NCBI RefSeq assembly: GCF_026626665.1
Contig: NZ_JAPNKE010000002.1
Span: 1,485,204 to 1,549,203, forward strand
DNA: 64,000 nt
Reading direction: 5' to 3'
Source of the DNA: Nannocystis pusilla
GTDB lineage: Bacteria > Myxococcota_A > Polyangia > Nannocystales > Nannocystaceae
In this document: one piece after another, positions 5,343-64,000 of the stretch
Layout: the number at the start of each line of letters is the position of its first letter
How positions within the stretch are numbered: position 1 is the stretch's first letter
Made by a program: the position numbers and the translations under genes
Notes under the pieces: generated by a model
The model's database searches: none
Told to the model about the DNA's origin: nothing
What the model saw: only the letters and a program-made list of their open reading frames with translations

Positions 5343-5428
5343 GCATGTTCGGGTGGGCATGTCCGCCGGGACATGTGCGAAAGGACGTGCGCGAAAGGTC
5401 ATGTGTGAAGGGGCATGTCTTTTCGCCG
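5343..5428. repeat. 14-bp periodic repeat array, core GGRCATGTCY, about 6 units
   Basis: …catgttcgggtgggcatgtccgccgggacatgtgcgaaaggacgtgcgcgaaaggtcatgtgtgaaggggcatgtct… lies between trpF and the Mur-ligase-like gene. Confidence 0.7.
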
Positions 5429-5723
5429 CAGCGCGCCGGCGCGAGGCCGTGACGGCGCCGGCGCCGGTGCCCGCGGGCGGGCGCGGGCGTTCGAGGCGAG
5501 GACCTGCTCGCGGACGGGCTCGCGCGAGCCAGAAGAGCGTGGCGAGCGGAACGAGAGGCGCGGGCGGGAGCGGGGCGCGGTTGCGGCGAGCGTGGACCGC
5601 GGAGCCACCGCAGTGCGCGCTCGCAGCGTCGCGCGCGAGACGAGCGTCGGCGGGGCAGGTTATGCTCGCCGGGTGACGAGCGTCTCGCGGCCAGTGCCGG
5701 CGGCGGCTCCGTGGGCGGAGTCG

Positions 5724-6917
5724 ATGTTCTCGTTCGGCGTCACCGGCACCAACGGCAAGACGTCGACGACGTGGATGCTGGCGGCGGCGGTGCGAGCGGC
5801 CGGGCTGTCGGTGCTGCGGGTGTCGACGCTCGGGGTCGCGTTCGACGACGAGGCGTGGCCGCGCGGCAAGCGGTTCACCGACTTCGTGGCCACTCTGGCG
5901 CGGGCGCACGAGCGCGGGGCCAGGCACGCGGTGATCGAGACGACCAGCCACGCGCTGGCGCAGGGCTACGCGCGCAGCTGGCGGTTCGACCTCGGGGTGT
6001 TCACCAACCTGTCGGTCGATCACTTCGGCACGCACGGCAGCTGGGAGCACTACCTGGCGGCCAAGGCCCAGCTGTTCATGCACCTGGGACCCGGGCGCGT
6101 GGCGGTGCTCAACGCGGCCGACAAGCACGCGCTGTTCGTCGACCAGGCGATCCCCGCCGACGTGGAGCGGCGGTGGTTCGCGGCGCCGGGTCGCGGGCCG
6201 CGGCTGCGCGCGGCGGATCTCGAGGCCGAGGCGATCGAGGTCGAGGCGACGGGGACGCGGGTGGTGCTGCGCCCGTCACCGGCCGCGGAGGCGCTCGGCG
6301 GGGCGCTCTTCACCAGGATGGTGGGCGAGGTGTTCGCCGAGAACGCGCTGGCGGCCGCGCTCGCGGGGCTCGCGGCCGGGCTGTCGGGCGAGGCGGTGGC
6401 GCGCGGGATCGCCGGGTGCCCGATCGTGCCGGGGCGCTTCGAAGTGCTGGCCCACGGATCCGGCCGGCCGACGATCGCGGTCGACTATGCGCACTCGCCC
6501 GACGCGCTGACGCACACGTGCGCGACGGCGCGGCGGCTCGCGGGGCCGCGGGGCCGGGTGTTCGTGGTGTTCGGCGCGGGCGGCAACGCGACGCCGGAGA
6601 AGCGCGCGCCGATGGGCGCGGCCGTCGGCGCGCTGGCCGACGTGGCCCTGGTGACGAGCGACAACCCGCGCGACGAGGCGCCGGAGGCGATCGCGGCCGC
6701 AGTGGTGGAAGGGCTGCAGGGCGGCCGCGCGGGCTGGTCGATCGTGCTCGACCGCGGGCAGGCGATCGCGGAGGCGATCGCGGCGGCCAAGGCCGGCGAC
6801 GTGGTGGTGGTCGCGGGCAAGGGGCACGAGGAGGGGCAGACGGCGCGCGGGCAGACGCGGCCGTTCTCCGACGTCGCCGAGGTGCGGCGGCTCGTCGGCG
6901 CGCCGGACACGGAGTGA
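5724..6917 (+). CDS. Mur ligase family protein, MurE-like central and C-terminal domains, lacking the N-terminal domain
   Basis: P-loop GVTGTNGKTSTT at the ATG, a TSDNPRDE motif, and a C-terminal AGKGHEEGQ…RPFSD typical of MurE. The upstream 100 aa of the 5415..6917 ORF is Arg-rich wrong-frame-like text. A possible alternative GTG start lies at 5673. Confidence 0.6.
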   Translation: MFSFGVTGTNGKTSTTWMLAAAVRAAGLSVLRVSTLGVAFDDEAWPRGKRFTDFVATLARAHERGARHAVIETTSHALAQGYARSWRFDLGVFTNLSVDHFGTHGSWEHYLAAKAQLFMHLGPGRVAVLNAADKHALFVDQAIPADVERRWFAAPGRGPRLRAADLEAEAIEVEATGTRVVLRPSPAAEALGGALFTRMVGEVFAENALAAALAGLAAGLSGEAVARGIAGCPIVPGRFEVLAHGSGRPTIAVDYAHSPDALTHTCATARRLAGPRGRVFVVFGAGGNATPEKRAPMGAAVGALADVALVTSDNPRDEAPEAIAAAVVEGLQGGRAGWSIVLDRGQAIAEAIAAAKAGDVVVVAGKGHEEGQTARGQTRPFSDVAEVRRLVGAPDTE

Positions 6918-6920
6918 TCG

Positions 6921-61757: not shown

Positions 61758-61815
61758 TCAATGTCTCCTGGGACAGGGTCTAAAGGACATGTCCTGCGAG
61801 GTGAGGCGCGAGGAG
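61758..61815. repeat. 14-bp periodic repeat array, 3-4 units
   Basis: caatgtctcctgggacagggtctaaaggacatgtcctgcgaggtgagg. Confidence 0.55.
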
Positions 61816-62723
61816 GGGGCGATCGAGGCGACCCGCAGCGGGGTCGGGTCGCCGGCGCCGGCGGCCGCGAGCGCGCGCGCGCGGGTGGCTGTCGGTGCAG
61901 GCGATGGCGGAGAACAGGCCGGTGGCCTGCAGCTTGTGCAGGGCGTCGCCGGGGAAGATGCCGTGGGTGGCGACGGCGGCCAGGCTGACGGCGCCGGCGC
62001 GCTGGTAGGCCCGGGCGGCGCCGATCAGCGAGCCGCCGGTGCGGATCATGTCGTCGTAGAGGATGACCGGCTTGCCGGCGACCTGGGCGTCGATGGCGGT
62101 GATCTCGGTGCGCTCGCCGTCGTGGCGGCGCTTGAACACGAAGGCGGCGGTGACCCCGAGGTCGTTGGCGAGCGACTCGACCACTTGGCGCGGCCGGCGT
62201 CGGTGCAGGCGAGCACGAACGGCCGGCCGCCGGCGATGTCGAGGATGATGTCGCGGATGACCGGCTTGGCGTAGACGTGGGTGGCGACCAGGCCGGCCTC
62301 GAAGTAGTGCGGGATGCCCTCGGCGTGGAGGTCGAGGAGGAGCACGCGGTTGCCGTAGGACGCCGGCGGGATGGCCGAGAACAGGGCGGCGCGGGTCTTG
62401 GCGGTGACGACCTCGCCGGGCTTGGTCGAGCGCTCCATCGTCGCGTAGCCGTAGTAGGGGACGACGAGGGTGAGGCGGCGAGCGCCGTAGTGGACGGCGC
62501 CGCAGGCGAGGTCGAACAGGGTGAGCGCGGCGGCGTCGTCGACGGTGCCGCCGATCATGACGACGTCGCGGCCCTCGACCGGGGTGACGAGGCGGAGGTA
62601 GCGCTCGCCGTCGGGGAAGGCGAAGGTGTCGATCTCGCCGGCCTCCAGCGCGGCCGAGCCGCACAGCGCGGCCTGCAAGTAGCCGTACTCCGGGGTGGCG
62701 AACACGAGCGGGCGGGTCGTCAT
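61780..62723 (-). CDS. prs: ribose-phosphate pyrophosphokinase (PRPP synthetase) family; apparent 1-nt deletion near 62200
   Basis: ATG at 62723 ([14 protein letters not shown]…). After …DAGRAKW the frame is lost (the expected [10 protein letters not shown] continues in the 61780 frame: …[14 protein letters not shown]…). The 'tgg' looks like a shortened 'tggg'. Confidence 0.7.
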
Positions 62724-64000
62724 GCGGCGGGGGAAGAGTACCCCTCGGCGAGCGCGTTGGCGACCTCGGTATAGGCGTAATCGCTGACGCGTTCGTCGAT
62801 GCGCATGCGCAGCAGCGCCTTGCTGCGGCAGGTGGCCGCGAAGAAGAACGCGCGATCGTCGGCGCACGCGCGCGCGAGCGCCGGATCGATCGCCCAGCGA
62901 TCCCACTCACGCTGGCAGATCCGCCGCACCGCGGGCCACAGGACGGCGGGATCGGGGCCGCCGGCGTCGTCGACCCAACCGATCACAGCCGCGAGGTGGG
63001 CGTGTACGAGGGTGTGCAGCAGCTTGCCCTGCGCCTCGGCGAGGTCGGAGGTCAGGGTGAAGGAGTCGGGCGCGAGCGCGGGGGCGTGGCCGGCCGCGGC
63101 CAGCCGCCCGCGGTGGAGCCGCACGCCGCCGAGGTCGCGGACGACGAAGCCGCAGGGGCGCCCGGCGTGGACGAGGAGGGTGTTTTGCAGGTGCGCCTCG
63201 AGGGCGACGCCGTGGGCGGTGAGCAGGCGCAGGGCCGCGGGGACGAGGAGGTCGAGGTAGTCGTGGAAGAAGGCCGCGAGGCGCGCGCGCAGATCGCCGG
63301 GGTAGTCGGCGGCGAGCTCGCGCAGCAAGAGATCGCCGCCGGGCCGATGCTCGCCGAGCGCGGCGCAGACGACGAGCTGCGGGGTGCGCGATCGTACATG
63401 CTTAAAGAAATGTCGTGCGGGACAGGTCCTCGGGGGCATGTTCCTGGGGGAATGTCGCGAAGGACAGGTCGGAAGGGGCAGGTGCGCGGGGGGCGAGTTC
63501 GGCGTCGCGCGGGACGGGTCGGTGGTTGCGCCGAGGATGGCGGGCAGGGCGGCGTGGAGCTCCTGGGCGAGGGTGGCGGGGTCGGGGCGGAGGACGGCGC
63601 CGAGCTGGCCGGCGGCGGCGCCGTGGCGCGGGTGCAGGCCGGCGGCGGCGAGGTCGGGCTGGATCTGCAGGCCGCGGCGGGTCTGCGGGTCGGCGGCCTG
63701 GATCGCGGCCAGGAGGGCGGCGATCGCCGGGCCGTTGTGCACCGAGGCGGGCGAGACCTGGCGCCGCGCGCTGGTGGTGTGGATGTCGACGGCGAGCTTG
63801 AGGTGCAGCGCGGGCGCGGCGAGGGCGACGGTGCGCAGGCTGAGCAGGGCGCGGGCGGGGAGCGGGGGCAGGCCGGCGGGGCGGACCTCGCGGCCCCACA
63901 GCGGGCCGAGCAGGCGCGGGAGGCGGCGCAGCTGGAGGGCGTGGACGGGCAGCCGGACCAGGCCGGGCGACGGGGCGGGGAAGAGGGCGCGCGCGAGGTC
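62720..64000 (-). CDS. IucA/IucC-family (NIS) siderophore synthetase, 3' portion; gene continues beyond the window end
   Basis: The frame is open to the window edge. It contains …[10 protein letters not shown]… (compare the LPVHPWQ motif) near 63930 and …[14 protein letters not shown]…RDLGGVRLH… (the H-x-QN motif) near 63200. Its stop overlaps the prs start (ATGA). A 14-bp repeat array at 63396-63482 is translated in-frame. Confidence 0.6.
63396..63482. repeat. 14-bp periodic repeat array, about 6 units, in-frame inside the NIS synthetase ORF
   Basis: atgtcgtgcgggacaggtcctcgggggcatgttcctgggggaatgtcgcgaaggacaggtcggaaggggcagg. Confidence 0.65.

Follow-up and report, generated by a model that had tools for sequence, protein, structure and literature searches.

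A 64,000-nt stretch of the Nannocystis pusilla chromosome (contig NZ_JAPNKE010000002.1, positions 1,485,204 to 1,549,203; the window hereafter) contains numerous arrays of a short palindromic unit repeated with a period of 14 bp. The arrays mark the 3′ ends of genes, a distribution known for repetitive extragenic palindromic (REP) elements. The motif GGRCATGTCY is present in 20 copies compared with 0.35 ± 0.64 in dinucleotide shuffles, and among the 258 CATG tetramers of the window 33 successive pairs are spaced by exactly 14 bp, any other spacing occurring at most four times. A relaxed position-weight scan revealed 20 arrays of 2–7 units, against 0–1 in 20 shuffled windows, and Tandem Repeats Finder (TRF) independently called period-14 arrays at 5369, 24830, 25225, 28100, 32166, 42793 and 52964. 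The units are directly visible when the sequence is laid out in a 14-nt register. An earlier note on this DNA had listed arrays at 17 coordinates, and an element of the kind is indeed found at each of them; 14 pass the relaxed scan as 14-bp arrays, the others being variant, degenerate or single-hairpin forms, and the scan adds three arrays at 2689, 4668 and 11439. The proposed unit of GGRCATGTCY plus a 4-nt spacer retains its 14-bp phase, but the consensus derived from 279 units of several genomes had to be amended to RGGRCATGYCC, followed by 2–4 nearly random bases. Array lengths span 28–98 bp, and the largest array holds 6–7 units rather than the suggested 10. Not every core is self-complementary either, as had been supposed, because the arrays at 52948 and 63396 carry a CAGG core replacing CATG. 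Special tetraloops were considered for the spacers and rejected, the spacer positions being near-random.

The window is ordinary chromosome of 72–73% G+C which carries trpE, a Mur ligase gene, bipA, rlmE, gcvT and nadE, and it encodes a protein with 100% identity to N. pusilla OV079_06895. The family is widespread in the genus. In a genome scan with one genome per species and a pattern of four phased GRCATG cores, at least 34 of the 112 loci among the matches listed derive from Nannocystis, the carriers being N. bainbridge, N. radixulma, N. exedens, N. punicea, strain RBIL2 and a metagenome-assembled genome (MAG). Arrays are present in every Nannocystis locus sampled, and each of the seven further Nannocystis assemblies covered, one MAG and six strains or species, has them. 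The concern that they might be an assembly artefact or confined to the window is thereby removed, as they recur in eight independent assemblies including N. pusilla. Extrapolation from the 20 arrays in 64 kb and the sampled loci would imply thousands of arrays per 12-Mb genome. Among the matches listed, those outside Nannocystis are without exception perfect microsatellites of 7 or 14 bp that have no relation to the arrays, for the most part the GGGGCAT heptamer of cyanobacteria; a common family with them was rejected in view of their other cores and identical spacers. A metagenome scan for two perfect units provided 124 loci for analysis (120 metagenomic and 4 viral), of which, among the matches listed, at least 101 have a G+C content of at least 66%; these 101 loci hold at least 170 arrays, including one of eight identical units (locus L178). 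The viral matches are perfect 7-/14-bp microsatellites or single chance palindromes and were discarded as family members. More distant relatives were sampled via RlmE and IucA/IucC homologs. Five of their loci (L126, L127, L129, L130 and L134) have single hairpins and arrays of 2–3 units, a Nannocystaceae MAG (L133) has almost no elements, and none were found in the loci of a Myxococcales MAG (L135) and a Polyangiaceae MAG (L086).

In agreement with the earlier view that the element is not a textbook family, no published description was found in the paper library searched. Literature matches to GGGACATGTCC are confined to p53 papers, the unit being by chance an instance of the p53 half-site RRRCWWGYYY. 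The RCATGY core is also the recognition site of the restriction enzyme NspI, and we take both matches to be coincidences.

Elementary module, unit turnover and folding

The deepest conserved module of the family is the strict inverted repeat TGTCC-N4-GGACA. It is found in 62 copies in 377 kb of Nannocystis DNA, in which variants with an N3 or N5 spacer or in everted order are completely absent, and in a single copy in 200 kb of other high-GC DNA. In the more distant lineages L126 and L127 the module also occurs, there as a plain hairpin (e.g. CCTGTCC-CTTC-GGACAGG), and it predates the genus Nannocystis. The arms in Nannocystis have the sequence GGRCATGYCC, which equals its reverse complement. 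With self-complementary arms of this type, an inverted repeat is at the same time a direct repeat, whose period is given by arm plus loop, 10 + 4 = 14 bp. The existence of arrays at exactly this period, and their growth by slippage, would follow from this property of the arms.

Differences between species are compatible with such a scheme. Past the gene upstream of the Mur ligase gene, six units in one species face four in another, and the gap at 24.8–25.3 kb contains nine units (6 + 3) in N. pusilla and six in N. bainbridge. Some arrays consist of units which are near-identical including their spacers, as the one at 52944 or the eight identical units of L178. Between species, spacers are 60% and cores 89% identical compared with 81–95% for the 4-fold degenerate sites of flanking genes; spacers hence diverge faster than silent codon sites. 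Unit-number differences, arrays of near-identical units and fast spacer divergence all agree with unit-wise growth. Core conservation was rejected as a proof of purifying selection, since the register is anchored on the cores and the spacers outpace 4-fold sites, so that the core/spacer pattern fits turnover as well as selection.

When transcribed, the palindromic arrays are predicted to fold strongly, with z-scores of −5.6 to −7 relative to shuffles for the G-rich strand. The strings of hairpins with 10-bp stems and 4-nt loops postulated previously are not what folding predicts; the structure is one long nested hairpin over the whole array, in which pairing takes place solely between units. 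In contrast, the CAGG-type array at 52940–53033 folds on neither strand (z = −0.8 and +0.8), so stem-loop formation is not a general property of all arrays. Of the six variable stem positions, 3.34 are complementary between adjacent units compared with 3.15 for random partners (z = 3.3), while self-complementarity of the unit is lower, at 3.03. This excess weakly supports pairing between units.

For the three main palindromic arrays, G-U pairs render the G-rich strand more stable than the complementary one by 15–17 kcal/mol. Within the window the G-rich side lies on the + strand in every array except that at 11439–11480, regardless of gene direction. Over all loci, array polarity follows the local GC skew by 48 to 7, or by 38 to 6 when the window is left out, and is indifferent to the direction of the genes. 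A built-in replication-linked polarity, comparable to FtsK-orienting polar sequences (KOPS) or Chi, was considered and rejected. The 279 units oriented by skew display only a small asymmetry (G 0.86 versus mirrored C 0.72), and with the unit nearly symmetric, polarity can be attributed to strand-biased mutation of a symmetric palindrome.

Placement at gene ends and inside genes

Gene maps were based on our own calls from third-codon-position G+C, start codons being approximate. Position statistics cover the window and 36 other Nannocystis loci, and several of the locus sets had been selected by the motif, including the 34 Nannocystis loci of the genome scan. Unit density amounts to 6.4/kb in intergenic and 0.96/kb in coding DNA; these absolute values are inflated because the 34 loci were chosen for carrying an array, which leaves the contrast between gap types unaffected. 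Two or more units occupy 40 of 52 convergent and 39 of 124 tandem gaps, but only 3 of 34 divergent ones. In tandem gaps the median distance of the array is 5 nt to the upstream stop codon and 185 nt to the start that follows (20/24, p = 0.0015), and convergent gaps are often filled from stop to stop, e.g. at 20816, 28095 and 6922. The REP-like preference for convergent and tandem gaps proposed in the earlier note is thus borne out. Its further statement that arrays sit at nearly every intergenic gap went too far, as 15 of the 39 window gaps of at least 25 bp carry one, and the arrays are not strictly intergenic: that at 63394–63491 lies inside coding sequence, and further in-frame copies exist in genes. 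The low-GC island at 34.7–37.6 kb is free of arrays, as noted before, apart from one chance-level two-unit match. The elements of the window are as follows (positions in the 64,000-nt window; the strand is given where one is assigned).

2689–2730: weak three-unit array (score 27.8 in the relaxed scan), spanning the overlapping stop/start junction (2723–2726) of co-oriented genes downstream of trpE.
4668–4709: two to three units with mixed CATG and CAGG cores in a tandem (+) gap.
5339–5422: six-unit array starting on the stop codon (5340–5342) of the upstream + gene; the true start of the Mur ligase gene is about 270 nt beyond it. The N. radixulma ortholog has four units (L125 19744–19799).
6922–7010: four to six units filling the convergent gap between the Mur ligase gene (+) and a tetratricopeptide repeat (TPR) gene (−), with units in both orientations and an A-tract/T-tract pair.
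11439–11480: three-unit array just 3′ of the stop of a low-density lipoprotein (LDL) receptor class A (LDLa) repeat gene (11490–12083, −); arrays occur at the equivalent position in L123 (18953–19008) and L125.
14928–14983: four-unit array at the junction of two − strand genes, missing from the orthologous gap in N. bainbridge and N. radixulma and hence gained or lost.
20816–20885: two units, a 14-nt interruption and two units, filling the convergent gap downstream of rlmE; the N. bainbridge ortholog (L123 10636–10705) has an identical layout and identical cores but diverged spacers.
21570–21597: two-unit element 13 nt past the stop of an L3-like gene, kept in N. bainbridge, N. radixulma and L126 and represented by a plain hairpin in L127.
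24832–24915: six-unit array starting 10 nt past the stop of a + gene, one half of a split array.
25222–25263: three-unit array, the second half, 21 nt from the stop of a − gene; the two halves are contiguous in N. bainbridge (L123 6600–6683).
28095–28164: five-unit array filling a convergent gap from stop to stop; N. exedens likewise has five units past the equivalent stop (L080 2157–2226).
32163–32218: four-unit array upstream of a histidine kinase gene.
42780–42849: four to five units starting at the stop of a PmbA/TldD gene in a tandem + gap.
43644–43671: degenerate two-unit hairpin GGGGATGTCC-CCGG-GGACAGGTC in a 31-bp convergent gap, below the scan threshold, with TGTCC-N4-GGACA at 43652.
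44851–45011: variant of four CTGTCYC-N4-GRGACAG hairpins spaced by 36–39 bp, recognized by TRF and in the sequence layout.
46952–47007: two to three units just downstream of the stop (47021) of a di-haem peroxidase-like gene.
52944–53020, + strand: four to five CAGG-type units (TCGGGGACAGGTGC) 13 nt past the gcvT stop.
59678–59768: single hairpin (59678–59705) and two-unit array (59741–59768) downstream of the nadE stop (59779); the relaxed scan detects only the second part of this element, listed earlier at 59675.
61769–61796: two-unit element located 17 nt upstream of the nadE reading-frame limit at 61779; its orthologs, kept in N. exedens, N. punicea and L130 (3/3), span the phosphoribosyl pyrophosphate (PRPP) synthetase stop in the 22-nt gap before nadE.
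63394–63491, − strand: six to seven units with CAGG core, in-frame in the interdomain linker of an IucA/IucC-FhuF siderophore synthetase.

In the array at 52944–53020 the near-identical units, whose spacers are similar too, form a direct repeat without palindromic character, which for this reason looks like a recent local duplication. The halves at 24832–24915 and 25222–25263 are separated by a G-rich tandem repeat block (24916–25221) with periods of ca. 36 and 69 bp, which splits the array contiguous in N. bainbridge. This block was not retained as a second repeat family, as it was found in none of the 135 loci compared. The variant at 44851–45011 represents a second arrangement of the module, with CTGTCYC-N4-GRGACAG hairpins every 36–39 bp, which recurs in L134 (9249–9400) and L208 (1618–1759); in the same region, at 44.1–46.9 kb, an extracytoplasmic function (ECF) sigma domain lies inside a long, putatively coding open reading frame (ORF).

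The array at 32163–32218 was, as judged from comparison with N. radixulma, ancestrally located just past the stop of the gene now found at 37671–39164 before a 5.5-kb insertion parted them. The segment 32219–37745, ca. 5.5 kb in N. pusilla and absent from N. radixulma, comprises three high-GC genes and the low-GC island, which contains a Ser/Thr-kinase-like ORF at 35395–36177. It is inserted exactly between the 3′ end of gene 37671–39164 and the first array unit (32205–32218); the gene, deprived of its final codons and its stop, now extends to 37671. The junction between gene and array may be an insertion hot spot. Between the two-unit element past the L3-like gene and the rlmE start, a conserved GC hairpin, GAGCCGGCC-N4-GCCGGCTC followed by GCTGCTTAA, is present at 21520–21560 (−) in the window and in L123, L125 and L126; it may serve as terminator, attenuator or leader structure for rlmE. 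The window also encodes repeat proteins of eukaryotic type, with LDL-receptor class A repeats (11490–12083, −; including a 105-bp tandem repeat at 11544–11756) and with epidermal growth factor (EGF) and FG-GAP repeats (56449–59553, −).

Copies inside genes are best documented by the gene at 62720–64000 (−), in which the array at 63394–63491 is translated in-frame in the linker between the two domains of the siderophore synthetase. All linker orthologs carry the pattern ..EDMS..T(F/C)P..H(V/A).., whose residues correspond to the unit read in three frames, GAC ATG TCC, ACA TGT CCC and CAT GTC (DMS, TCP and HV). The number of units is three (42 nt) in L129 and L130, six in N. exedens and N. punicea and six to seven in N. 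pusilla, and the site is empty in more distant homologs (Enhygromyxa, Pseudenhygromyxa and other MAGs). In a different clade, related 14-bp-phased CCTGTCC repeats were independently inserted a few residues away; in L134 such direct repeats inside the IucA/IucC homolog read as ..DLSD... The excess of the motif in genes was evaluated by synonymous-codon shuffling of 293 kb of confidently called gene interiors, in which 19 copies of TGTCC-N4-GGACA are observed for 0.5 expected, and 12 copies of GGACATGTCC for 1.4 expected. In-gene insertions and excess together indicate that the element reaches new sites, coding ones included. The idea that coding arrays are always multiples of three units was dropped; it is approximately valid in the IucA/IucC linker and fails for other in-gene copies. 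In conserved parts of the same protein a two-unit element (LQDMSLRTCSL) and a single unit (RTC) are discernible at residues ~60–70 and 138–140, also in L129–L132, and could be exapted repeat units or chance resemblances. Additional in-frame insertions may be represented by the TGTCC-N4-GGACA hairpins with low-GC flanks at 12973 and 18744 of L127, which fall within the genes called there for an Lhr helicase and for MutS.

The arrays also interfere with gene calling. As previously recognized, six-frame translation of arrays produces spurious ORFs, and the peptides MSRRTCP and GHVLRDM are present in such translations. The ORFs 5415–6917 and 28776–32198, which either take their ATG from within an array unit or lie antisense to a true gene, are artefacts of the high G+C content and the CATG cores; the true histidine kinase gene extends over 28847–32047. 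A role of the CATG of terminal units in start-codon supply was rejected as well, the ORF from the ATG at 5415 being over-extended, with Mur ligase domains and orthologs starting near 5690. Annotators need to be aware of the arrays, to which spurious ORFs, false start codons and gene calls that extend too far, such as 5415–6917, can be traced.

Proposed origin and function of the arrays

The explanation we favor, with about even confidence as a whole, considers the arrays as lineage-specific, partly selfish repeats of the kind of REPs and bacterial interspersed mosaic elements (BIMEs), which turn over in 14-bp units, are kept where they are harmless and form 3′ stem-loops that damp readthrough and block exonucleases. 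Its anatomical and distributional parts are close to certain, the effects on transcripts are postulated by analogy, and the growth by slippage and the route by which new loci are seeded are inferred. In this scenario, the family would have started from the 14-bp inverted repeat (C)TGTCC-N4-GGACA(G), which in single-stranded form is expected to adopt a hairpin with a 4-nt loop. Within Nannocystis these arms would have lengthened and become self-complementary (GGRCATGYCC), thereby generating a direct repeat from which units might be gained and lost by replication slippage. The arrays would persist where they do little harm, namely right after stop codons, in convergent gaps and in in-frame protein linkers. 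Upon transcription they would provide mRNA 3′ ends with strong stem-loops, and these most probably would behave like the REPs of E. coli, serving as leaky terminators or readthrough dampers whose effect depends on context and, in addition, holding up 3′ exonucleases. The E. coli REPs have been reported to be dual 3′-untranslated-region (3′-UTR) terminators and stabilisers (bioRxiv 10.64898/2026.03.23.713779).

Several observations weigh against this explanation. Neither canonical terminators nor promoters were found at arrays; a terminator scan of 20–33 kb returned two sites for 2.3 expected, none at an array. No U-tracts were found past the arrays, which are therefore not canonical intrinsic terminators. 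An array of six to seven units is tolerated in the middle of a gene, and two-unit elements occupy the 22-nt gap between the co-oriented prs and nadE genes, both of which argue against strong termination. The CAGG-type array does not fold. As the G-rich side tracks replication skew rather than transcription, half of the transcripts carry the weaker C-rich version, which speaks mildly against selection at the RNA level. Slippage alone cannot account for the seeding of new loci. Finally, the sequence itself, beyond the structure, is constant at every locus and in several lineages, and this constancy together with the in-gene excess points to a sequence-specific partner or to active dispersal.

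A purely selfish or neutral element, to which we concede a modest chance, would be a functionless hairpin-seeded minisatellite that grows by slippage, is copied to new sites by templated repair or by a single-strand transposase resembling REP-associated tyrosine transposases (RAYTs), and is maintained only at sites where its insertion causes no damage. Such an origin is consistent with the variation of copy number and array presence between species, the spacer divergence beyond that of silent sites and the perfect recent expansions. It would likewise accommodate the in-frame insertions into the IucA/IucC linker, set against the empty site and the independent related insertion nearby in another clade, as well as the array split by another repeat block and the 5.5-kb insertion abutting an array. 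However, the two-unit elements past the L3-like gene and at prs-nadE are kept across several species and deeper lineages, and the placement is very tight, within a few nucleotides of stop codons. Array ends exhibit neither a target duplication nor a terminal motif, and no transposase turned up, although a genome-wide RAYT search was not part of the analysis. This alternative moreover overlaps with the favored explanation of partly selfish REP-like repeats and does not exclude it.

The constancy of the sequence might instead reflect protein binding. TGTCC-N4-GGACA is a 5-N4-5 palindrome with the geometry of FNR-type sites, and since the sites abut every 14 bp, dimers of an abundant DNA-binding protein could coat the DNA. 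Such a coat might serve gene ends as a roadblock or as an element of nucleoid structure or topology. No spacing other than N4 occurs, N3, N5 and everted copies being absent, it is the sequence itself, in addition to the pairing, that stays constant across loci and lineages, and non-folding direct arrays of the half-site GGACA persist in 14-bp phase. The motif excess in genes surpasses the amino-acid and codon-usage expectation, and the weak polarity tracks replication instead of transcription. We nevertheless regard tiled binding sites as unlikely. No candidate protein came up, and the thousands of gene-end sites obtained by extrapolation would be unusual for a regulator. A strict 4-nt spacer with conserved arms is equally expected of a tetraloop hairpin family of common descent, and the rapid turnover of units and the gain and loss of arrays between species are unlike conserved operators.

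A related and similarly doubtful idea regards the palindrome as the cis half of a two-part system, in which a Nannocystaceae-specific protein would read TGTCC-N4-GGACA / GGRCATGYCC. The putative partner could be a dimeric duplex binder tiling every 14 bp or a HUH/RAYT-like enzyme acting on the folded single strand, and it would disperse the element or use it genome-wide, e.g. for factor-dependent termination or for supercoil handling between convergent genes. If true, this would account for the strictly spaced constant sequence, the in-gene excess, the non-folding arrays and the appearance of new sites including in-frame ones, and a partner protein, if existing, would make a new genome-wide cis/trans system.

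An artefact or known element (assembly error, CRISPR, RNA gene or cyanobacterial heptamer of the short tandemly repeated repetitive (STRR) type) has virtually no probability, because, even though the four-unit pattern also matches many cyanobacterial GGGGCAT heptamer arrays and scattered microsatellites, equivalent arrays occur at orthologous sites of independent assemblies, no Rfam or tRNA matches were obtained, the 14-bp period with 2–4 nt between cores is not the anatomy of CRISPRs (repeats of 23–50 bp with unique spacers of similar length), and the other pattern matches have identical spacers and different cores.

Comparison with known repeat families

With the arrays, the small palindromic repeats of bacteria would gain a new and very dense family, found in organisms whose genomes of 12–13 Mb are mined for natural products. 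Their architecture offers a simple route from a terminator-like hairpin to a tandem array via self-complementary arms, and the differences in unit number between species suggest their use as variable-number tandem repeat (VNTR) markers for strain typing in Nannocystis.

With intrinsic (Rho-independent) terminators the arrays share a GC-rich hairpin right past the stop codon, bidirectional between convergent genes; they differ by the lack of a U-tract, the same stem sequence at every locus, several units per site and the presence of unfoldable members. Miniature inverted-repeat transposable elements (MITEs) of 50–500 bp are characterized by terminal inverted repeats and target-site duplications, neither a terminal motif nor a duplication being found at Nannocystis array ends. 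The DNA uptake sequences (DUS) of Neisseria and the uptake signal sequences (USS) of Haemophilus are fixed 10–12-mers, whose inverted pairs often double as terminator hairpins and which are neither tandemly phased nor self-palindromic. They are recognized by a competence receptor, and DNA carrying them is taken up preferentially. Motif excess, inverted pairs past genes and copies inside genes are common to them and the Nannocystis family, whose units are, however, tandemly phased and self-palindromic, and nothing links the motif to DNA uptake. Among cyanobacterial repeats, the highly iterated palindrome HIP1 is hyper-abundant but dispersed singly and largely in genes, and STRRs are short tandem intergenic repeats with perfect, non-palindromic units of 7 bp. 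The Nannocystis family resembles HIP1 as an abundant short palindrome and STRRs as short tandem intergenic repeats, and is lineage-confined as they are, yet its units combine a conserved core with variable spacers in a 14-bp phase.

Rickettsia palindromic elements (RPEs) are single elements of 100–150 bp located in-frame in protein-coding genes at tolerant sites; they were reportedly introduced by Ogata et al. in Science in 2000. The in-frame insertion at a tolerant coding site is found again in the IucA/IucC linker, which is empty in distant homologs. Besides Rickettsia, Nannocystis would hence offer another natural example of proteins that incorporate palindromic repeats. In contrast to RPEs, the Nannocystis inserts are multiples of the 14-bp unit (three, or six to seven in the linker), and the great majority of copies are intergenic.

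The closest likeness is to the REPs and BIMEs of Enterobacteria and Pseudomonas. Both groups consist of short GC-rich palindromes that form clusters, preferably past genes and in convergent gaps and seldom in divergent ones, and their locations vary between relatives. REPs have hundreds or more dispersed copies per genome, a range that the Nannocystis family would reach by extrapolation, and 3′ stem-loops, which REPs can form, are predicted for the palindromic arrays. The Nannocystis unit is, however, a 14-bp sequence with a 10-bp palindrome of the perfect type, whereas REPs are imperfect palindromes of 20–40 nt, and its units succeed one another in head-to-tail order, always in the 14-bp phase and separated by spacers of near-random sequence, whereas BIMEs alternate REPs joined by defined linkers. 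No conserved head (GTAG-like) or tail motif of the REP/RAYT kind flanks the 70 aligned Nannocystis arrays, and copies also occur in-frame inside genes. The family is therefore REP-like in placement and folding potential and departs from REPs in unit size, head motif and alternating architecture.

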